From a virus, in the IMG/VR virus record IMGVR_UViG_3300028844_006574, positions 27,376 to 91,375 of that record: a DNA stretch of 64,000 nucleotides; one strand, written 5' to 3'. Positions 41,122 through 50,123 of the stretch are shown here, one piece after another. A program made the translations under genes and the position numbers. Each line of letters begins with the position of its first letter. Position 1 is the stretch's first letter. The notes under the pieces were generated by a model, which saw nothing but the letters and a program-made list of their open reading frames with translations, did not search any database and was not told the DNA's origin.

Positions 41122-41152
41122 AGCACCAGTCTTAACCGACTGGTGCTTTTTT
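41122..41152 (+). terminator. Rho-independent terminator after gp23
   Basis: Perfect 10-bp stem AGCACCAGTC-TTAACC-GACTGGTGCT followed by a T run; it overlaps the last codons of the convergent clpC gene. Confidence 0.85.
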
Positions 41153-43570
41153 ATGTTCAATTTTAACAGAGTCTTGATCAACCAGAGCTGAAATTTCGAC
41201 CGGTCGTCCATGTTCCAACAAGAATTTAGCTAGTGGTGTTTGCACTTTAGATTGAATAATTCTTCTCAATGGCCGGGCTCCATATTTTTTATCAAACCCT
41301 TGCTCCAGTAAAAGGTTCTTGACTTGAGTGGATATGCTCAATTTAACTTGCTGTAGTTCCATCCGGTCGGTAAACTTTTTCAATTCGTTATTCAATATAC
41401 GTTTACACGTCTCCTGATTGAGACTGTTGAACATGACTATCTCATCCAATCTATTGATAAACTCAGGTCTCAAGTGGCTCTGTAGCTGCTTTTTAATGTT
41501 GTCCAGGTTTTGTTCATCAGTACTACCGAACCCTACAACATGATTATGCTGCATGCGATCGGCTCCGATATTGGTGGTTAACAATATCACACAATTTCTA
41601 AAATTGATACTCACTCCCCGGCTATCTGTCAATTGACCTTCATCTAAAAGTTGTAATAGTAACTGCATCACATCCGGATGTGCCTTTTCAATCTCATCAA
41701 ACAGTACAACACTGTATGGTTCTTGTCTGACACTTTCAGTCAATTGCCCACCTTCACCGTAACCTACATAACCAGGAGGACTGCCAATCAACTTGCTCAC
41801 GGAATGTGCTTCCATTAACTCACTCATATCCACCCGGATCATGTTAGTTTCATCACCATAAACAAATTTAGCAAGTTGTTTAGCTAGATAAGTTTTACCA
41901 ACACCTGTTGGACCCATCAACAAAAATGACCCCACCGGTCTCTCCGGGTCTGATACATCCATTCTGCTCCGAATGATACTGTCTGAAATCACTTCAACTG
42001 CTTGGTCTTGACCTAGAATATATTTTTTAAGATTACGTTCTAGACCTACCAATTTTTTAGACTCACTCCTCTTCAAATGCTCCAACGGAACACCACACCA
42101 GCTGCTGACTGTTGATCGAATATGCTGCTCTGTTATTTCCAAAGTCTTTTGTTTATTCAAACTTGACTTGACCGCCTTGGTTCGTTGAGACTTGAACTTT
42201 TTCTCAGCACCTCGAAATGTAGCTGCCGCTATAAAATCATCATTTGTCAAATGTTCCAGCGCCAGATCTGCACAGTCTTGTATTTTACCTTCTAGTTTGA
42301 CAACTCTAGAAGGTACTGTACCGTGCTTGAGCCTCAATCGGGCCGCGCATTCATCTAATACATCAATCGCTTTGTCTGGAAAGAATCTGTCTGTTATGTA
42401 CCTACCACTTAAATCAACCGCTAGTTGTACAGCTTCTTCTGTATATATGACGTTATGAAACTCCTCGTATTTGTGTTTCAAACCAGTTAATATATCGAAA
42501 GTCATTTCATAATCCGGTTCATCCACTACAATTTTTTGAAACCTACGCTCCAATGCTCCGTCAGATTCTATAAATTCACGATACTCATCAAATGTTGTAG
42601 TACCAATACAGCACAAACCACCTCTGCTCAATGCTGGTTTCAATATGTTGGCCGCGTCCATTGCTCCATCTGCATTACCAGCACCAACCAACATATGAAT
42701 CTCATCAATAAACACAACCGTATCTTTCAATTGCATCAAATCATCCATCACCTGTTTCATACGTTCTTCGAACTGACCACGATATTTGGTCCCCGCGACC
42801 ATCAGAGACAAATCCAAATTATAAATTTGCTTGTTTTTGAGTTGTAATGGAGCTGTACCCGCTGCAATCATGTTGCACAAACCTTCAACAACGGCTGTTT
42901 TACCCACACCCGGTTCCCCTACAAGTACTGGATTATTCTTTTGTCTTCTGCACAACACTTGCATCACTCGTTCAATCTCCTGCTCTCTCCCAACAACAGG
43001 ATCCAATAATCCTTCGTTGGATTGCAATGTCATGTTTACCGCAAATTGTTCTAGGGCTTCCCCTGGTTTCATCATCTGTTCGTTCCCACCTGTAGAAGCT
43101 CCTTGTTCTTGTTCTGATATGTCTTGTTGAGGGTTCAAATATTCTCTAAATGCTTGAGCTAACCCCGGTAGATCCACTCCGTTATCGTACATGAACGAAA
43201 ACGCTTGACACTCCGTATGACACACAATACCCAACATCAAGTGCTCGGTACCAATGAACGAGTGATTCATCTTGGCACTAACGTTTTTAGCCAGTCTGAG
43301 CACACGTTCTACCTCATCGCTCATGGGTATTTTAATATCTGTATCCTTAGCCCTAATCACTTGATTATCAAGATGGTAATGTAAGCGATCAGTTAATGTT
43401 TTTATATTGACACCCTGCATGACCAGTAGTTCATGTGCCAAGCTATCTTCTGTACATATTGTGGCCATCAACACGTGTAAAGTGGTGATTTGACCGTGAT
43501 CGTACTTACCAGCATACAGCTGCGTTTTCGCTAGCAAATCATTCGCTCGTGGTGAAAAGTTGTACATCAT
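41132..43570 (-). CDS. clpC: ClpC-type Hsp100 AAA+ unfoldase
   Basis: Double Clp-N repeats (IGTEHLMLG), GEPGVGKT and GPTGVGKT Walker A motifs, a short UVR-like middle domain (DDFIAAATFR), a VGF ClpP-docking loop and YGARPLRR. Confidence 0.92.
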   Translation of the reverse strand: MMYNFSPRANDLLAKTQLYAGKYDHGQITTLHVLMATICTEDSLAHELLVMQGVNIKTLTDRLHYHLDNQVIRAKDTDIKIPMSDEVERVLRLAKNVSAKMNHSFIGTEHLMLGIVCHTECQAFSFMYDNGVDLPGLAQAFREYLNPQQDISEQEQGASTGGNEQMMKPGEALEQFAVNMTLQSNEGLLDPVVGREQEIERVMQVLCRRQKNNPVLVGEPGVGKTAVVEGLCNMIAAGTAPLQLKNKQIYNLDLSLMVAGTKYRGQFEERMKQVMDDLMQLKDTVVFIDEIHMLVGAGNADGAMDAANILKPALSRGGLCCIGTTTFDEYREFIESDGALERRFQKIVVDEPDYEMTFDILTGLKHKYEEFHNVIYTEEAVQLAVDLSGRYITDRFFPDKAIDVLDECAARLRLKHGTVPSRVVKLEGKIQDCADLALEHLTNDDFIAAATFRGAEKKFKSQRTKAVKSSLNKQKTLEITEQHIRSTVSSWCGVPLEHLKRSESKKLVGLERNLKKYILGQDQAVEVISDSIIRSRMDVSDPERPVGSFLLMGPTGVGKTYLAKQLAKFVYGDETNMIRVDMSELMEAHSVSKLIGSPPGYVGYGEGGQLTESVRQEPYSVVLFDEIEKAHPDVMQLLLQLLDEGQLTDSRGVSINFRNCVILLTTNIGADRMQHNHVVGFGSTDEQNLDNIKKQLQSHLRPEFINRLDEIVMFNSLNQETCKRILNNELKKFTDRMELQQVKLSISTQVKNLLLEQGFDKKYGARPLRRIIQSKVQTPLAKFLLEHGRPVEISALVDQDSVKIEHKKAPVG

Positions 43571-43607
43571 ATCTACAATTATGTATGAAAGTATTTATTT
43601 TTCAAGC

Positions 43608-43636
43608 TTGATATGGCACTATTTATTATCTATAAT
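43608..43636 (+). promoter_or_regulatory. Sigma70-type promoter of the deazaguanine cluster
   Basis: TTGATA (43608-13), 17 nt, TATAAT (43631-36); the likely ATG is at 43645. Confidence 0.75.
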
Positions 43637-43644
43637 ATATGAAT

Positions 43645-44445
43645 ATGAAGATTGAAGTTTCCCATGAGAGTCCGTTGAGCTTATTAGAGCAGTCATTACA
43701 GTACAATGATTATTGTTATGCACTGGTACATTTGTTTGAACAATACCCAGAATATTTTAACTTTTTCAAGACAGCCAAGGATATACACGACAAATGTGTG
43801 TACCTGGACAACAGCATATTTGAACTAGGGAAAAGTTTTGACGGTGCAGAATACACCAAATGGATAGAGAAGCTGGAACCTAGTGTGTACATTGTACCAG
43901 ACACTCTTGAGGAGAGCAAAGACACGATCAAACAATTTTACACCTTCACTGGAGAGTACCAGGATCTTCCTGGTATCAAGATGGGTGTGGTACAAGGTAA
44001 GACGTATGACGATCTAGTCAGATGTTACAGTTTCATGGCTGAGTATGCAGATGTGGTAGCCATAAGTTTTGATTATTCATATTACCTATCTACTGGTATT
44101 GGTAATACCAAACTGGAACGCTACATGAACGGTCGTCGTAAATTCATCCAAGATCTGATAAATGAGAACAGATGGAACTGGAGCAAACCCGTACACTTGT
44201 TAGGGTGTAGCCTGGCACGAGAATTCAGTTACTACGTGGACAACAACATACACAACATAAGAAGCTGTGACACATCTAACCCGGTTGTAGCTGCCATGTT
44301 CAATTTGAAGTACAATGATGATTTCGGACTTAACGAGAAACCTAGTCAGAAACTAGCTGATATGTTAGAAGCTAATCTAGATGACAATCAGCAAGAGATA
44401 CTTGAATACAATTTGAAAATGTTCAAGAAGATACTGCGAAGATAA
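43645..44445 (+). CDS. dpdA: TGT-fold guanine transglycosylase-like protein (DpdA-family, probably DpdA3-like)
   Basis: YLDNSIFELG, IVPD, MGVVQG, VHLLG and RSCDTSNP give a TGT-like barrel motif order; clustered with queF and a formyltransferase. Confidence 0.65.
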   Translation: MKIEVSHESPLSLLEQSLQYNDYCYALVHLFEQYPEYFNFFKTAKDIHDKCVYLDNSIFELGKSFDGAEYTKWIEKLEPSVYIVPDTLEESKDTIKQFYTFTGEYQDLPGIKMGVVQGKTYDDLVRCYSFMAEYADVVAISFDYSYYLSTGIGNTKLERYMNGRRKFIQDLINENRWNWSKPVHLLGCSLAREFSYYVDNNIHNIRSCDTSNPVVAAMFNLKYNDDFGLNEKPSQKLADMLEANLDDNQQEILEYNLKMFKKILRR

Positions 44446-44453
44446 ATAATTAA

Positions 44454-44990
44454 ATGATAGATGGTAGAGAATGGATCGCGTTGTTCAGTCACACTGGTTC
44501 AGAGATAGCAAACATTACTAATAAGCTCGGGTTCGGTCCCGACCGGGTGATAACAAACAAAATGGGTGTGGTGCACCGAGACTTGAATCATTGCACAAGA
44601 ACACGATCCAAACCAGACGTGCAAGACTATCAACTATTATTTGCTGATAAAGAACCGATCATAACCTTGCACGGCTGGATGAGAATCATTCCTGGTTCTA
44701 TATGTAAAGAGTATGATATATACAACCTGCACCCTGGTCTTATAACACAATACCCTGAGCTCAAAGGCAAAGATCCTCAAGAACGTGTATTCACCGCGTT
44801 GAACATACCACAATATGTCGGGTGTGTGATACATAGAGCGACTGATGAATTAGATTCCGGAGAGGTTATCATGTCACGTAGAGTGTTGAACACCTACCCT
44901 AACGTTCAAATATTATCTCATGCTTTACACGACATGGCTGGTGACATGTGGGTTGACTTTTTCGAGAGAAAATTATACAATAACGAATGA
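44454..44990 (+). CDS. dpdN: PurN-like formyltransferase, likely DpdN (preQ1 formyltransferase)
   Basis: LFSHTGSE, LHGWMRI, YNLHPGL..YPELKG, GCVIH...ELDSGEVI; lies directly after the DpdA-like gene. Confidence 0.7.
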   Translation: MIDGREWIALFSHTGSEIANITNKLGFGPDRVITNKMGVVHRDLNHCTRTRSKPDVQDYQLLFADKEPIITLHGWMRIIPGSICKEYDIYNLHPGLITQYPELKGKDPQERVFTALNIPQYVGCVIHRATDELDSGEVIMSRRVLNTYPNVQILSHALHDMAGDMWVDFFERKLYNNE

Positions 44991-45256
44991 ACAATTGGGG
45001 ATTGAGACCAGTGAAAACACCTGACGGGTTGTACATCCGAGAGGTATATTACAACAACGACGGGACTATATGTGATATAGAGATGCAGATAAAGCATGAA
45101 TATGACCCGGATCCACAGACAGTGATAAACCGACTCAAACCGTATTACCGGTACATTGAACAGATGAAACAATACGACCCGGATATTGTTAGATATGACC
45201 CTGACACAGACACCTTAAAAGATTGGATACCTGATGCTTCCATGGAAAAATCTTAA
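44987..45256 (+). CDS. Hypothetical protein
   Basis: ATGA overlap with the previous gene; W..R......IREVYYNNDG motif is common in small phage proteins. Confidence 0.6.
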   Translation: MNNWGLRPVKTPDGLYIREVYYNNDGTICDIEMQIKHEYDPDPQTVINRLKPYYRYIEQMKQYDPDIVRYDPDTDTLKDWIPDASMEKS

Positions 45257-45437
45257 TTTCAAAGGCCGTATACTCGCTGTATGTGTTTTTATTAACATGT
45301 ATGTCTCTATTGTATATGTAACAACTGGTAGTTATGTAGCTATATTACCGGCATGCATGGCAATGTTATGCGGTATATCTACATACAACCCTAAATACCA
45401 GCAGCTTGACGCAACAGATTTGGAGAATAACAGGTGA
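45234..45437 (+). CDS. Small membrane protein
   Basis: Two hydrophobic segments; overlaps both neighbours. Confidence 0.55.
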   Translation: MLPWKNLNFKGRILAVCVFINMYVSIVYVTTGSYVAILPACMAMLCGISTYNPKYQQLDATDLENNR

Positions 45438-46300
45438 ATATCAATTTAGAATTTGACATAGTAATTTGTGTAGGTCCGAAGGATTCGGAGAATATCCACG
45501 CGCAAATAGAATATACTAAAAATAACATTGTAGGTTACAGAAACATTTATTTGGTCACTCCGATTGAAAATTTGAGAATTGATAATTGTACTACAGTAAA
45601 TGAAAATAGTTTCCCATTCGGATTGGCTGACTGTCAAAATAGATACATACTGTCAGAAAAAGACAAAGAAAGAGGAGAAGAAAGCCGCGCTGGTTGGTAC
45701 TTACAACAATTACTAAAACTATACGCCGGTATTTGCATTCCAAATATTCTCGATAGATGGTTAGTAATTGATGCAGACACATATTTTTTAAAACCAACTA
45801 CCTTTATAGAAAATGCCAAGTGCTTGTATAACACAGGTTACCGATCCACATCCGCGATATGTGGTTTCCAATACCATAGACCATACTTCGCGCATATGGG
45901 AAAGCTTGGAATAGGGTTGAAACGGTATGATAAAAATATATCTGGAATATGCCATCATATGATGTTTGAAACAAAATATGTCAAAGAGATATTGACCCGT
46001 GTAGAGAATATTTTTAATGAAAATTTCTATACTGTTTTTCTAAATAATATAGACAGTAAGCAATTATCCGGTGCATCTGAATATGAAATTTATTTTAACT
46101 ATATGTTGATAAACCATCCAGATAAAATAAAAATTAGAAACCTACAATGGAGTAACATAGGTATAAGAGACTGGGATTACCTCTCACTCGACAAGCCCAC
46201 TACCATACCACCTGAATGGGCTGATCTTACACTCAAGAGTGAAATAAACTACGATTATGTTTCTTGGCATCGCTGGGGACGCCGTAAAAAACTCGACTGA
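45434..46300 (+). CDS. GT-A-like protein (DUF6492-like), putative glycosyltransferase
   Basis: GWYLQQLLKL, WLVIDADTYFLKP (DxD), HHMMF, SEYEIYFNY. Confidence 0.65.
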   Translation: MNINLEFDIVICVGPKDSENIHAQIEYTKNNIVGYRNIYLVTPIENLRIDNCTTVNENSFPFGLADCQNRYILSEKDKERGEESRAGWYLQQLLKLYAGICIPNILDRWLVIDADTYFLKPTTFIENAKCLYNTGYRSTSAICGFQYHRPYFAHMGKLGIGLKRYDKNISGICHHMMFETKYVKEILTRVENIFNENFYTVFLNNIDSKQLSGASEYEIYFNYMLINHPDKIKIRNLQWSNIGIRDWDYLSLDKPTTIPPEWADLTLKSEINYDYVSWHRWGRRKKLD

Positions 46301-46307
46301 AGTTAAT

Positions 46308-46661
46308 ATGAGTAACAATAGAAAATTTGAGACCGGCGCGCAGCGTGACACCGGTGATGGTAAACTAAGAATGTCTCTTGTACCGCAGCAAGAGCTTAAA
46401 CGTGTCATGAAGCGATATCTAGACGGGGCCGAAAAATATGGTGAGAACAACTGGATGAAAGGCATGCCCCTTAGCGTGTATTTTGACAGCGCTCATCGAC
46501 ATCTGGAGGCATGGTGGTGTGGTGAGGATTCCGAAGACCATGCTGCAGCGGTTGTGTGGAACATGTTATGTGCCATGTACACCGAGACAAGAGCTCATGA
46601 GTTAGACGCTTTTCCTAAGGAAAAACAACTAGATGATAGAATAAAATACCCGAAAGATTAG
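46308..46661 (+). CDS. dATP/dGTP diphosphohydrolase-domain protein (DUF5664-like)
   Basis: FETGAQRD..DGKLRMSLVP, GAEKYGENNWMKGMP, DSAHRHL..W..GE..EDHAAAVVWN; start moved to the ATG at 46308. Confidence 0.85.
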   Translation: MSNNRKFETGAQRDTGDGKLRMSLVPQQELKRVMKRYLDGAEKYGENNWMKGMPLSVYFDSAHRHLEAWWCGEDSEDHAAAVVWNMLCAMYTETRAHELDAFPKEKQLDDRIKYPKD

Positions 46662-46698
46662 TGGATAATATTTTAAGAATAATATATAATATGTTGAT

Positions 46699-47256
46699 AT
46701 GTTAATAAGTTTCACAGGAGCTCAAAGTACAGGTAAAAGTACATTGTTGCGGCGCATGCTTCAACATGAAAAATTGAGAAAATGTACGTTTATCAAAGAA
46801 GTTACACGCAAAGTCGCCTCACAAGGTATCAAGATCAATGATGAAGGTGACAACATGACTCAACTGTTCATATTGAGCGAGCATTTACATAATCACCATT
46901 TGCCCGGTTGTGTAGTTTTGGATCGTTGTATTATAGATGGTTATATATACACCAAGTGGTTGCATGAACAGGATAAGGTGGAAGGATGGGTGCTGAAATA
47001 TGCTTGGGATTTACACAACGTGTTAGTTGACAAACTAGACGTTATATTCTACACGGAACCAGACGATATCAAATTGGAAGACGATGGCGAGCGTAGCACG
47101 TGTGAGAGTTTTAGAAACGATATATTGAGAATGTATGAAGACTATTTGACCTGGAACCCGAAAGTGAGAAAAAAACTGGTGAGGTTATCCGGTACTGTTG
47201 AAGAACGGTTTAAAACAATACAAACGACTTTTGAAAATTATGACAAAATTAGATAA
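46699..47256 (+). CDS. P-loop nucleotide kinase (AAA_28 / dNMP-kinase-like)
   Basis: ISFTGAQSTGKSTLL, VLDRCIID, LEDDGER, LSGTVEER; preceded by TGGATA-17-TATAAT (46662-46690). Confidence 0.75.
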   Translation: MLISFTGAQSTGKSTLLRRMLQHEKLRKCTFIKEVTRKVASQGIKINDEGDNMTQLFILSEHLHNHHLPGCVVLDRCIIDGYIYTKWLHEQDKVEGWVLKYAWDLHNVLVDKLDVIFYTEPDDIKLEDDGERSTCESFRNDILRMYEDYLTWNPKVRKKLVRLSGTVEERFKTIQTTFENYDKIR

Positions 47257-48166
47257 TTCCCGTATCAGCAAGGTGTTAGGCCAGGTTGTTGATTATCCTG
47301 ATCAATACGACCCGTCAATCCTGGTCAAAGAACCCCGGAGCAACAACAGACAACATTTGGATTTACATGACGACAATTTACCGTTCGTAGGCTTTGACAC
47401 TTGGAACGCATATGAAGTGAGTACATTGACAAGCAAAGGCATGCCCGTTACAGGTGTGTTGAAAATCGTGTATCCCTGTGATAGTAAATTTATTGTGGAG
47501 AGCAAGAGTATCAAGTTGTACCTCAACTCATTCAACATGTTTAAAAACGGAGACACCCGGGAACAAGCTGTTTCGGACATGGTGTTAACCGTGACCAAGG
47601 ATTTGAGTGAACTGTTAGAGACCGATGTCAAAGCAAAGTTTTTGAATGATCATAACCGGGAAGACCCAAAACCGGTGTTTGGTGAGATGTATCACTGGAC
47701 GAGCCTCGAACATGATCTAGTTGACAAGGAGACTGTAGACAACATGCAATTGAATGTATATGAAGAGACTCCCGAGCTGCTCAAAATTGAAGGTATTGGA
47801 AACAACAAGCACCCTCATGTACAGGTGTTCAAATGCGGTTTACTCAAGAGCAACTGCCGGGTGACCAATCAACCGGACTGGGGTGATGTGTTTGTATATA
47901 TCATGGGTAAAAACCATGTTAACCCGGCGAGTATGTTAGAGTATATTATTTCATTCAGAAATGAGAATCACTTTCATGAAGAAATTTGTGAGACGGTATA
48001 CAAAAGATTGTATGAGTTGTTGAACCCGGATGAAATATGTGTGACGTGCTTGTATGCCCGAAGAGGTGGTATTGACATCAACCCCACAAGAGCTAATTTA
48101 CCGCATCTGTTACCGGAAAACTTGATAGACCCTGGTGTAGAACACTGTAAAACTCAAAAACAGTAG
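47240..48166 (+). CDS. queF: NADPH-dependent preQ0 reductase QueF (bimodular type)
   Basis: DTWNAYEVS, VESKSIKLYLNSFN, LLKSNCRVTNQPDWG (catalytic Cys), FHEEICE, YARRGGIDINP; start moved to the ATG at 47240. Confidence 0.95.
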   Translation: MTKLDNSRISKVLGQVVDYPDQYDPSILVKEPRSNNRQHLDLHDDNLPFVGFDTWNAYEVSTLTSKGMPVTGVLKIVYPCDSKFIVESKSIKLYLNSFNMFKNGDTREQAVSDMVLTVTKDLSELLETDVKAKFLNDHNREDPKPVFGEMYHWTSLEHDLVDKETVDNMQLNVYEETPELLKIEGIGNNKHPHVQVFKCGLLKSNCRVTNQPDWGDVFVYIMGKNHVNPASMLEYIISFRNENHFHEEICETVYKRLYELLNPDEICVTCLYARRGGIDINPTRANLPHLLPENLIDPGVEHCKTQKQ

Positions 48167-48198
48167 AGGATTTCCGTTACTCGACTATAAATAATAGT

Positions 48199-48822
48199 AT
48201 GAGTAACGAGTCCAACATTTTACGAGCTGGTCCAGCCAACCCTACACATTATAACAAACAGCGTCAACGCCATCGTTTGATGGAGCAAGAGGTTGACATG
48301 AACGACACCGCGTTCCGACAAGAACAAATGCTCAAAAAAGAGAAGATTGGTGACGCCACTGCTATGGTAATAATGAAAGCTGAGGAACAAGCAGACGCTG
48401 GACAACCTATGACCAAAAAAGAGTTAGCTAATGCTTGTATAGCTGCTCTATCACAAGCCAATTTTGAGATGGCTGATGACCAAGGTAAAATGGTACCTCG
48501 AGGTGGTGATGGAAGCGCATTCAGCCTCCCAGAGTATGGTTATTACATGGATTTAATAGAGATGGCCACCGAAGGTGTACCCATAGCATCCACCGGTGGT
48601 CGTGTCACAACAAATGGTGTTAAACCCATGACCGCAGAAAGATTCCGCAACATTTTCGAACAAGCTCTCCGGAAATTGAGAGGTACAATTGCTGACAACC
48701 CAGAGCTTAGTGAAGTGCTTCCTCAGTATCTGAAAGAAAATAAAACCAAACAAACACTCGGGTTCAATAAATTCAACACACTAGAAGTACTAAACGAATA
48801 TATCAGTAGCCATAACGGTTGA
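48199..48822 (+). CDS. Late protein with a sigma70 region-4.2-like helix
   Basis: MTAERFRNIFEQALRKLR versus RpoD VTRERIRQIEAKALRKLR; exact TATAAATA 5 nt before the ATG. Confidence 0.55.
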   Translation: MSNESNILRAGPANPTHYNKQRQRHRLMEQEVDMNDTAFRQEQMLKKEKIGDATAMVIMKAEEQADAGQPMTKKELANACIAALSQANFEMADDQGKMVPRGGDGSAFSLPEYGYYMDLIEMATEGVPIASTGGRVTTNGVKPMTAERFRNIFEQALRKLRGTIADNPELSEVLPQYLKENKTKQTLGFNKFNTLEVLNEYISSHNG

Positions 48823-48852
48823 TTGACATTATAATTGGTCATATATAATATT

Positions 48853-49077
48853 ATGACCGATTACATAAATGGTACCAAGTTCGTTGTTACAGTAAAGAAC
48901 AAATGGACTAACAGTGAGCGTAGAGTTATAGTGAGCAAATACAATGATGTTCAACTAGCTCATAAGTATGCATACTACCAGCATACTTCGAACCTTGAAG
49001 ATATTGTTAGTATCGTGAACCCTAGAAAACAAACAGTATTCACACTCCGCGGAGGTTTTCGAAGACCCGGTAAATGA
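48853..49077 (+). CDS. Hypothetical protein
   Basis: ATG at 48853, downstream of TTGACA (48823-28) and TATAAT (48844-49). Confidence 0.55.
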   Translation: MTDYINGTKFVVTVKNKWTNSERRVIVSKYNDVQLAHKYAYYQHTSNLEDIVSIVNPRKQTVFTLRGGFRRPGK

Positions 49078-50123
49078 GCGCTACAGGGTATGTAGTGTTT
49101 TGTGAAGATAAATACTACTTGTTATGGCAACTAGAGTTGTTAATCGAATCTATAACAAACCGTGCTGGTGTACATGAAAAAGACATAGTAGTATTATATG
49201 CAGACCCTAGCTATCACCACAGGAGTGTAGAGTGGGGACAATCACCATACTTGAAAAGTTTGATGAAACATCACCATGATGTAAAATTTTATCCTGTACA
49301 AAACTGGGGCCGGCGAAACTGGTATTTTCGTTTTGAAGATAATAAAACTTGGCACCCTAAACAGTACCCGGGTATAAACAAATGGCTGAGTTTATGTGAA
49401 GCAGCCAACGCCGGTTGGTTAGATGATTTTACTGAAGTTGTACTTTTAGAACAAGATTTGTGGTTCAGCGGCAATTTTCCAAAATTAGGTCATGGAAATT
49501 GTGTTACAGCCAATTGGTTGTGTGACAGATACAACGCGTTTGAGGTGAATGACAAAACAGATGATATGAACACCCCTGGATTCGACTTGGATGATATCAT
49601 GAAGCTGTGCAAAGTACCATCGTCTCATCGGAAAAGATGGACCTCCGGAGCCATTGTGTTCAAATTTGTCACCAAGCAACTAGTACAAGCCAAGTTTTTA
49701 AATGCACTGGTCAATTACAACCAATTGCTGATGACACTAGGTGAACTAGCACTACCACAGGGCGCTCGTCATGAAACAGACATGGTCGCTCCATCTTTGG
49801 CCATGGCCCACTGTGGTATGCATTGTAGAACGGTTGAGGATTTACAATGGAAATCAGACGTTTGGACCTGGCACCAAAAACCACCAGACAATGTAGTTGT
49901 TCATTACGGTTGGGACTTCGCTGCATACCCACATTTGAACTCAACGTTTAGTAAATTTAAATATACTAACAAAGGTCCATGGACAGACAAAGAGGTTTTG
50001 ATGGCAGAATATAATGACCTTGCATTTGATTGGATTAAATCATTATACAACGATATATTCAAAATAGGTGAAAAAAACATACAAAGGGTCTGCGATAGAC
50101 AGGTTTATCTCCCAGTTATATGA
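49074..50123 (+). CDS. GT96/GT95-like protein O-glycosyltransferase (peptidyl-serine galactosyltransferase / HPAT-like)
   Basis: VFCEDKYYLLWQLELLIES, YPGINK, VVLLEQDLWF, TDMVAPSLAMAHCGMH and VVHYG..F....FSK follow the plant SERGT1 motif order as I recall it (VEC..YFDWQ, YPAINKP, VVILDADM, SEMYGYSFGAA, HYG..F....F.K). Confidence 0.55.
   Translation: MSATGYVVFCEDKYYLLWQLELLIESITNRAGVHEKDIVVLYADPSYHHRSVEWGQSPYLKSLMKHHHDVKFYPVQNWGRRNWYFRFEDNKTWHPKQYPGINKWLSLCEAANAGWLDDFTEVVLLEQDLWFSGNFPKLGHGNCVTANWLCDRYNAFEVNDKTDDMNTPGFDLDDIMKLCKVPSSHRKRWTSGAIVFKFVTKQLVQAKFLNALVNYNQLLMTLGELALPQGARHETDMVAPSLAMAHCGMHCRTVEDLQWKSDVWTWHQKPPDNVVVHYGWDFAAYPHLNSTFSKFKYTNKGPWTDKEVLMAEYNDLAFDWIKSLYNDIFKIGEKNIQRVCDRQVYLPVI

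Follow-up and report, generated by a model that had tools for sequence, protein, structure and literature searches.

A predicted guanine-replacement operon with DpdA3, DpdN and a nucleoside/nucleotide-type kinase in an uncultured T4-like phage

An operon homologous to the fdPreQ1 system of a Flavobacterium phage

We analyzed the 3' 64 kb (64,000 nucleotides, called the window here and numbered from its first letter) of the 91,375-bp IMG/VR viral contig IMGVR_UViG_3300028844_006574, the completeness of which was 43% according to CheckV, focusing on a plus-strand cluster with genes for DpdA3, DpdN, a diphosphohydrolase, a kinase, and QueF. Judged by homology, the cluster is a guanine-replacement operon of an uncultured T4-like phage, related to the system of the Flavobacterium phage immuto_2-6A, in which deoxyguanosine (dG) is fully replaced by fdPreQ1, as determined by liquid chromatography-mass spectrometry (LC-MS) in the study that named DpdA3 and DpdN (PMC10516641). 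The gene content points to fdPreQ1 as the final base in the phage studied here as well. We give an even chance to a nucleotide-level, pre-replicative route, in which the base exchange by DpdA3 would take place on free deoxyguanosine or one of its nucleotides.

The original prediction for this stretch had recognized five genes (DpdA-like, PurN-like, hydrolase, kinase, and QueF) and linked them to the formyl-preQ1 system of a Flavobacterium phage carrying DpdA3 and DpdN. All five were indeed found in one plus-strand cluster, and the link proved right, with identities to the immuto_2-6A proteins of 46% for DpdA3, 42% for DpdN, and 32% for the kinase. The two phages share the gene order DpdA3-DpdN-kinase-QueF (with a small open reading frame [ORF] after DpdA3 in immuto_2-6A), an all-alpha nucleoside triphosphate (NTP) pyrophosphohydrolase in the cluster, and a location of the preQ0 genes elsewhere in the genome. 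They differ in backbone, the phage studied here being T4-like, with a Gp23 capsid and a genome of ~210 to 220 kb, while that of immuto_2-6A has 160 kb. The hydrolases differ too: here it is a PF18909 protein encoded between DpdN and the kinase, in immuto_2-6A a PRA-PH/MazG-like protein encoded upstream of DpdA3. Furthermore, the operon studied contains a DUF6492 insertion and two small ORFs, with no phosphoribosyltransferase (PRT) gene near. The gene set is a distant addition to the known DpdA3/DpdN fdPreQ1 type, differing from it by the hydrolase and the DUF6492 insertion. Also borne out was the statement that the insertion step in the Flavobacterium phage is unresolved: DpdA3 has never been successfully assayed, though the authors propose post-replicative insertion (PMC10516641). 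Our literature search found no paper resolving the DpdA3 substrate, and the word "kinase" is absent from PMC10516641.

A second relative is the dADG system of the Campylobacter Firehammervirus phages, CP220 gp055-gp057 (Crippen et al. 2019, as related in PMC10516641). The two systems have in common a DpdA3 (42 to 44% identical), an orthologous AAA_28 kinase (34%) encoded directly after it, and a nucleotide phosphohydrolase encoded before it. In CP220, however, the hydrolase consists of an HD domain joined to a second kinase (AAA_33), QueF and DpdN are lacking, and the final base is ADG.

DpdA3 is a minimal TGT-fold enzyme with conserved catalytic aspartates

The dpdA3 gene (43645..44445, +; the ORF opens at 43639) encodes a protein of 266 aa with the fold of tRNA-guanine transglycosylases (TGTs), predicted to exchange guanine for preQ1. 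Its placement among the DpdA clades, a check proposed with the original prediction, led to the DpdA3 subfamily by similarity to immuto_2-6A gp206, annotated as a DNA guanine transglycosylase (45.9% identity, E = 2e-53, tblastn), and to the Firehammervirus homologues (42 to 44% identity; CP220 gp056, 42.5%, E = 2e-39), the matches to gp206 and gp056 spanning 83 to 85% of its length. It also matched PHROG 19058 (E = 4e-54). A PDB search with the sequence found nothing, and the AlphaFold2 (AF2) model (pLDDT 89.6) gave in Foldseek a TGT, 2pot, as the best match (E = 8e-8, probability 1.0, TM score 0.65); the top 40+ PDB matches of the model were all TGTs.

Three aspartates, D57 (LDNSIF; D57xxxF61), D88 (IVPD), and D211 (CDTSNP), were invariant across 16 diverse DpdA3 homologues. 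They are in register with D95-F99/D130/D256 of the bacterial enzyme bDpdA, in which Asp95, together with Phe99, is the general acid/base and Asp256 the nucleophile (PMC10164549). They are likewise in register with D72/D114/D215 of the phage 9g DpdA, a correspondence of motifs only, with an hhalign probability of 1.3% against a four-sequence DpdA1 profile. DpdA3 shares with bDpdA/DpdB (PMC10164549) and with the phage DpdA1 enzymes (9g, Dp-1, Iggy) the TIM-barrel TGT fold and the general-acid Asp plus aromatic residue, base-recognition Asp, and nucleophile Asp, in matching order and spacing. It is 50 to 130 residues shorter than they are and has 57 residues after the nucleophile Asp. Two features of bDpdA are missing from it, Ins8 (an insertion of 128 residues) and the Zn site, both of which make nucleic-acid contacts in bDpdA and TGT. 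From its sequence and model, DpdA3 looks like an active enzyme, a TGT fold reduced to a minimum in which all three catalytic aspartates are conserved; DpdN, QueF, and the kinase, described below, also look active by their motifs.

Two proteins appear to be natural fusions of DpdA3 with QueF: in P0122, of 531 aa, and P0124, of 566 aa, residues 1 to 270 correspond to DpdA3 and the part from residue 270 to the end to QueF. Such fusions fit preQ1 as the incoming base. A third protein, P0123 (586 aa), has a 316-aa N-terminal part fused to DpdA3; no family was found for this part, and its protein atlas matches were uninformative.

DpdN is encoded directly 3' of DpdA3 (44454..44990, +; 178 aa). It is a PurN-like formyltransferase (PF00551, E = 2e-10; TIGR00639 PurN, E = 2e-9) with 42% identity to immuto_2-6A gp204 (YP_010114479; E = 2e-38) over 94% of its length. 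The catalytic triad N91-x-H93 and D134 was invariant in 16 sequences, and an N-terminal SxxGxE loop resembles the SGxGSN loop of PurN. The protein amounts to a bare PurN-type catalytic domain with no nucleic-acid-binding extension. We predict that DpdN formylates the 7-aminomethyl group to give fdPreQ1; the published activity is likewise a prediction.

The partner kinase has a nucleoside/nucleotide kinase fold

The kinase gene (46699..47256, +; 185 aa) encodes an AAA_28 protein (E = 9e-15; PHROG 2107) of the deoxynucleoside kinase (dNK)/thymidylate kinase (TMPK) superfamily, with 32% identity to immuto_2-6A gp203 and 34% to CP220 gp057. PDB sequence searches gave nothing usable. The AF2 model (pLDDT 89.7) matched best the deoxyadenosine kinase 2jat, followed by 8puu, the NadR-RNK 6gyf, dCK, and Dm-dNK, and TMPKs ranked next after these nucleoside kinases (E = 3e-7 to 1e-5). 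The conserved motifs comprise the P-loop GxxxxGK[ST]T, D75-R76-C77 (DRC), and the lid D129-G-x-R132-S (DDGxRS). By predicted fold and motifs, the protein is a small-molecule nucleoside/nucleotide kinase. Since nucleoside kinases outrank the nucleoside monophosphate kinases, the substrate of the base swap could be dG rather than dGMP. The original idea of a kinase that re-phosphorylates the swapped dGMP therefore stands as to the kinase fold and is weak as to dGMP.

Searching in the reverse direction, we found that all 18 isolate records with a full-length homologue of this kinase are DpdA3 phages (14 Campylobacter and 4 Flavobacterium phages). Distant homologues of 23 to 25% identity, annotated as thymidylate kinases, occur in ~131-kb Streptomyces phages (LukeCage, Karimac, and ~30 others), for which the DpdA3 search of phage records gave no match.

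DpdA3 is accompanied by a kinase and by lineage-specific hydrolases

Homologues of DpdA3 numbered 3,878 in the protein collection searched, and 541 loci were confirmed in IMG/VR, the best 80 of which we surveyed with flanks of at most 10 kb. The gene for the kinase was present in 77 of the 80 loci, and the other three end within 1.9 kb after DpdA3; we regard the kinase as the universal partner of DpdA3. QueF was encoded in 74 loci, DpdN in 39, in the same position as here, directly 3' of DpdA3, a MazZ-like protein in 14, and an XGPRT-like PRT, also present in immuto_2-6A, in 11. The commonest orders were DpdA3-kinase-QueF (35 loci), DpdA3-DpdN-kinase-QueF (16 loci), and DpdA3-DpdN-67-aa ORF-MazZ-like-kinase-QueF (11 loci). 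The first of these has no intervening gene, the distance from the DpdA3 stop to the kinase start being 0 to 28 nt. In 11 loci, DpdN and the kinase are separated by a gene for GMP reductase (e.g., L058:11390-12349; NF003966, E = 2e-100, 336 bits, cut-off 344), which may drain the guanine freed by base exchange into IMP. Subunits of ribonucleotide reductase (RNR) are encoded upstream, in 17 and 8 loci.

The pairing also extends beyond one kinase family, as five isolate lineages (immuto_2-6A, CP220, phiST, MA9V-3, and BSTP12) combine DpdA3 with kinases of differing families. In Cellulophaga phage phiST an AAA_18 kinase, CGPG_00066, is encoded directly upstream of DpdA3; in Chryseobacterium phage MA9V-3 an AAA_18 kinase is likewise upstream, and in Bacillus phage BSTP12 a weakly dNK-like protein precedes DpdA3 and PolA follows it. 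A nucleotide phosphohydrolase gene adjoins DpdA3 or lies a few genes from it in four isolate lineages and in the contig studied, and its family varies by lineage: MazZ-like (PF18909) in the contig studied, PRA-PH/MazG-like (gp208) in immuto_2-6A, an HD domain fused to AAA_33 in CP220, MazG (CGPG_00068, two genes off) in phiST, and, as a hydrolase-type gene, a dCTP-deaminase-like one in MA9V-3. Experiments have demonstrated non-orthologous replacement of this kind among the hydrolases by which dU-DNA phages exclude thymidine (PMC12697855). The controls were four loci of the DNA-acting DpdA1 type, those of 9g, Dp-1, Iggy, and Calamitous, in which no adjacent kinase or NTP hydrolase gene was found; that of Calamitous has a ParB-like, DpdB-type neighbor. 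The partner of DpdA3 is a nucleoside/nucleotide kinase rather than the ParB-like DpdB, and the replacement of guanine in cultured DpdA3 phages is complete rather than partial.

The hydrolase of the operon studied (46308..46661, +; 117 aa) is a MazZ-like protein with an all-alpha NTP diphosphohydrolase domain (PF18909, dGTP_diPhyd_N, E = 5e-22, 78 bits, cut-off 27; PHROG 801, dATP/dGTP pyrophosphohydrolase, E = 2e-21). From the alignment and the sequence, its true start is 46308 and not 46257; PDB sequence searches with it gave nothing usable. The claim that it drains dGTP to dGMP holds as regards the domain. Its role on dGTP is a conjecture, because the gene occurs in so few of the related loci and the family is widespread in phages not known to modify G; we regard the protein as a candidate dGTP-to-dGMP enzyme and nothing firmer. 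The same type of dATP/dGTP diphosphohydrolase domain, with the logic of draining a canonical dNTP, belongs to the Z-genome triad PurZ/MazZ/DatZ, reportedly described by Sleiman et al. in 2021. There, in contrast, the target base is A and not G, and PurZ (PF00709) gave no match on our contig, which is incomplete; a Z-genome reading of the locus was rejected on this ground.

A conserved protein of 115 aa is encoded between DpdN and the kinase at L027:12347-12694 and in 20 other loci, and its motifs KQxDYGxxN and NExxxDAFxD recall the KYGxNN of the MazZ-like family. Its reading as a hidden MazG/MazZ-like hydrolase was unsupported, with an hhalign probability of 0.8% and no Pfam or PDB match.

BSTP12 (L087, MW354678.1 15832-26410) has its DpdA3-like gene mis-annotated as NadR, between genes for a P-loop protein and DNA polymerase I. 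Upstream of it lie QueD, a gene of the Gat-QueC type, and two genes for GTP cyclohydrolases, a context suggesting that there is an unstudied group of Bacillus phages with heavy G modification.

Possible pre-replicative and post-replicative routes of guanine replacement

In the pre-replicative route, preQ0 would be made by FolE, QueD, and QueE (probably encoded beyond the contig end) together with QueC (encoded on the contig) and reduced to preQ1 by QueF. DpdA3 would swap guanine for preQ1, most likely on dGMP or dG, supplied by the breakdown of host DNA and by the MazZ-like hydrolase cutting dGTP. DpdN would then formylate the aminomethyl group, and the dNK/TMPK-fold kinase would phosphorylate the product, leaving it to host kinases to complete the triphosphate and to the phage polymerase to incorporate it. 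The sequences themselves show the gene identities, the homologies, the conserved catalytic motifs, the structure of the operon, and the co-occurrence of its genes; what we infer is the final base, the substrate of DpdA3, the order of exchange, formylation, and phosphorylation, the substrate preferences of hydrolase and kinase, and when these steps take place.

T4 makes its hydroxymethylcytosine by a comparable pathway, consisting of the gp56 dCTPase, the gp42 dCMP hydroxymethylase, and the gp1 dNMP kinase. If the route studied here is pre-replicative, the likeness would lie in a dNTP hydrolase that keeps out the canonical base and provides the dNMP, alteration of the base at the monophosphate, and re-phosphorylation by a phage kinase, with the host nucleoside diphosphate kinase and the phage polymerase finishing the process. 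The enzymes, however, are not homologous, and a proposed TGT-fold base exchange takes the place of C5 hydroxymethylation.

A pre-replicative route had been the core of the original prediction, and the genomic context spoke for it: the pairing of DpdA3 with a kinase, the fold of that kinase, the variety of the hydrolases, and the lack of both in the DpdA1 loci lend it partial, circumstantial support. Also counting in its favor are the further enzymes of guanine-nucleotide metabolism encoded in or near the module of relatives (GMP reductase, the XGPRT-like PRT, and RNR), the bare PurN-type domain of DpdN, and the sigma-70-type promoter-like site ahead of an operon that has no full late-promoter motif inside. 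This pattern of the loci matches what a T4-style pathway acting on the nucleotide pool would predict. Three published observations agree with it, namely, the 100% replacement in DpdA3 phages, compared with at most 30% for the other DpdA classes, the detection of the ADG nucleoside in CP220-infected cells, and the failure of DpdA3 expressed in Escherichia coli by Cui, Hutinet et al. to give any modification (PMC10516641), a test done without the kinase.

Several points weigh against this reading. To our knowledge, no TGT-fold enzyme acts on a free nucleotide, the characterized members acting on tRNA or DNA. The structural arguments fail to discriminate: in a test of net charge and isoelectric point (pI) against DpdA1, the median pI of DpdA3 was 5.5 and that of the 9g DpdA 5.6, and the CxCxxC motif is absent from DpdA3 and from phage DpdA1 alike, so that the DNA-acting DpdA1 is also acidic and lacks CxCxxC. 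A predicted complex of DpdA3 with the kinase scored 0.00, which is evidence for neither side. In the kinase comparison, nucleoside kinases stood only slightly above TMPKs, both at probability 1.0, and the phosphoryl acceptor may be either a nucleoside 5'-OH or the phosphate of an NMP. The MazZ-like gene is confined to just 14 of the 80 loci, and PF18909, found in 720 phage records, mainly of actinophages, is frequent in mycobacteriophages and in Arthrobacter and Cutibacterium phages without known G modification. The 80 loci themselves are the closest of the 541 and phylogenetically non-independent, and FolE, QueD, and QueE were not found on the 43%-complete contig. Finally, the discoverers of DpdA3 take any DpdA as a sign of post-replicative insertion (PMC10516641), and bDpdA requires an ATPase partner (PMC10164549), so that an ATP-binding neighbor alone is not decisive.

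These last points lead to the published post-replicative model, a possibility that we take seriously without expecting it to hold. It has DpdA3 swap every G in replicated DNA, with DpdN formylating either the free preQ1 base or dPreQ1 in DNA. The kinase and hydrolase would be general nucleotide-pool genes that happen to be close by, or the kinase would be an ATP-using helper comparable to DpdB. In its favor, DpdA3 has the fold of TGT and DpdA and the three catalytic aspartates of polynucleotide-acting enzymes, and Cui et al. propose it for all DpdA classes (PMC10516641); the ATPase partner of bDpdA (PMC10164549) means that an ATP-binding neighbor is not in itself evidence of nucleotide chemistry, and the MazZ-like family is common among unmodified phages. 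The universal partner, however, is of the deoxynucleoside-kinase/TMPK fold, with DRC and lid arginines, and not ParB-like or helicase-like, and the pairing holds across unrelated kinase families and phage lineages while being missing from the four DpdA1 loci. GMP reductase, XGPRT-like, and NTP-hydrolase genes are inserted in the module, complete replacement is typical of pool-level pathways, and DpdA3 in E. coli yielded no modification, all of which sit poorly with exchange in replicated DNA.

A ribonucleotide salvage pathway, in which an XGPRT-like PRT would load preQ1 or preQ0 onto phosphoribosyl pyrophosphate and the kinase and RNR would carry the product to the deoxy-triphosphate, seems to us improbable. 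DpdA3 would then be secondary, proofreading residual G in DNA or serving in recycling. The XGPRT-like PRT of immuto_2-6A and 11 of the 80 loci, the upstream RNR genes, and a compatible kinase fold fit such a pathway, but our searches found no PRT in the operon studied or on the contig, the PRT is limited to a minority of loci while DpdA3 is universal, and it is equally explained as recycling the guanine released by base exchange. That the module instead serves to raise or change the queuosine of host tRNA, or to produce a 7-deazapurine as a free metabolite, with no modification of phage DNA, is very improbable: QueF and QueC do belong to the queuosine pathway, genes of which occur in some phages that have no DpdA (PMC6884629), but three cultured DpdA3 lineages have DNA fully substituted with 7-deazaguanines by LC-MS (PMC10516641), DpdN plays no part in queuosine synthesis, and DpdA3, with its 57 residues past the nucleophile Asp, lacks the tRNA-binding insertions of bacterial TGT.

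Returning to the nucleotide-level route, we see an even prospect that DpdA3 is the first TGT-fold enzyme acting on a free deoxyguanosine nucleotide or nucleoside and that, together with a dNK-fold kinase and variable dGTP-draining enzymes, it achieves pre-replicative full G replacement in aquatic phages, T4-like and others, that form a very large and for the most part uncultured group. The sole published proposal for the 100% G replacement in DpdA3 phages is post-replicative and is based on the presence of DpdA; our mechanistic reinterpretation was not found in the literature searched, apart from the general idea of a modified-dGTP route proposed for Campylobacter phages (PMC6884629). If true, it would add a fourth fully pre-replicative base-replacement chemistry to those of hydroxymethylcytosine/hydroxymethyluracil, Z, and dU, a new substrate class for the TGT fold, and enzymes for making 7-substituted 7-deaza-dGTPs. 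Given the numbers of homologues and of loci in IMG/VR, aquatic viromes may commonly include phages with complete G replacement, a point that bears on restriction and CRISPR evasion and on sequencing chemistry.

QueF and the supply of preQ0

QueF (47240..48166, +; 308 aa) is a bimodular enzyme (QueF_N, E = 2e-32; QueF, E = 2e-23), predicted to be the NADPH-dependent reductase of preQ0 to preQ1. It matched TIGR03138 with E = 7e-73 and 245.6 bits, below the equivalog cut-off of 293. Its true start is the ATG at 47240, giving a 17-nt overlap with the kinase stop. The QueF motif ESKSIKLY, the catalytic-Cys motif KSNCRVTNQPDWG, and HFHE are all present, the signature E(S/L)K(S/A)hK(L/Y)(Y/F/W) and the catalytic Cys being what we take to define the family.

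FolE, QueD, QueE, and QueC had correctly been described as missing from the window. A search for them elsewhere on the contig, suggested at the same time, located QueC, 67 kb upstream, and did not find FolE, QueD, or QueE. QueC (TIGR00364, 185 bits, above the cut-off) and a class II glutamine amidotransferase occupy contig positions 3472-4865, outside the window. The stand-alone amidotransferase (GATase_6/7, a GlmS/PurF-like N-terminal domain) directly follows QueC, and the pair looks like a split version of the Gat-QueC fusion of phage 9g-type clusters; the amidotransferase may supply ammonia to QueC or serve in making another 7-deazaguanine derivative.

A complete 222-kb relative (G001), the DpdA3 of which is 86% identical, encodes FolE, QueD, and QueC, with FolE and QueD 19 to 23 kb upstream of QueC, a position equivalent to one beyond the 5' end of the contig studied. 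Three further complete relatives encode QueD and QueC, with a weak QueE match beside QueD, and two of them also encode FolE. FolE and QueD are therefore probably off the end of the contig, and the 7-deazaguanine pathway is most likely complete in the real genome.

Operon layout, promoter-like sites, and neighboring genes

The T4-like character of the contig is evident from genes for the Gp23 capsid protein, prohead protease, sheath, tube, baseplate, and large terminase, along with homologues of gp32, a DnaB-like helicase, primase, and RNase H. Nine plus-strand ORFs lie within 43639-48166, tightly packed, with overlaps or gaps of 0 to 40 nt. When the cluster was compared by blastn with 50,697 phage records, zero matches were obtained, so that its kinship is visible at the protein level only.

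Three ORFs of the cluster had been absent from the earlier description. The first (44987..45256, +; 89 aa) has a single weak Pfam match, and among the 80 loci its counterpart occurs only in the closest relative, L007. The second (45234..45437, +; 67 aa) gave no family match in profile searches and is a conserved companion of the MazZ-like gene, being found in 12 of the 80 loci, each time immediately 5' of it. The third (45434..46300, +; 288 aa) encodes a DUF6492 protein (PF20102, E = 1e-6), the protein atlas clusters matched by which are all DUF6492. None of the 80 related loci has this gene, not even that of the 86%-identical relative, which makes it an insertion specific to the lineage. Giant viruses share the DUF6492 family, as judged from the protein atlas.

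In the divergent intergenic region before the operon, a sigma-70-type promoter-like site, TTGATA-17-TATAAT (43608..43636, +), scored 11/12 and was the top site in 43400-49200; it is a match to the consensus only and may not be of the host's type. A T4-type late-promoter-like TATAAATA (48186..48193, +) lies just past QueF, marking the operon end, and ends 5 nt before an ORF starting at 48199. Three of the five copies of TATAAATA (20740, 30279, and 48186) are located 4 to 6 nt upstream of ORF starts (20752, 30293, and 48199), while their total number in the window is not above chance. No full late-promoter motif was found within the operon. The TAAATA noted earlier 5 nt before the dpdN ATG, overlapping the upstream stop, is indeed there (44443-44448, at the DpdA3 stop codon). 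Its suggested function as a late promoter, implying post-replicative formylation, is unlikely; we rejected it because the leading TA of the T4 consensus is missing, a sigma-70-type site stands upstream, and the full TATAAATA begins the next transcription unit.

On the whole contig we counted 395 copies of CCGG, where base composition predicts 132 (the excess over the Markov expectation being 1.56-fold), and 92 of GGCC. None of the 4-bp palindromes is avoided, every observed/expected ratio being at least 0.9. That no palindrome is avoided would be in keeping with DNA protected by the replacement of all its G, which does not in itself account for the CCGG excess.

The divergent upstream neighbor of the operon (41132-43570, -) encodes a full-length ClpB/ClpA-type double AAA+ chaperone of 812 aa with the domains Clp_N, AAA, AAA_lid_9, AAA_2, and ClpB_D2-small. 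A ClpB-like gene is also found upstream of DpdA3 in 12 related loci.

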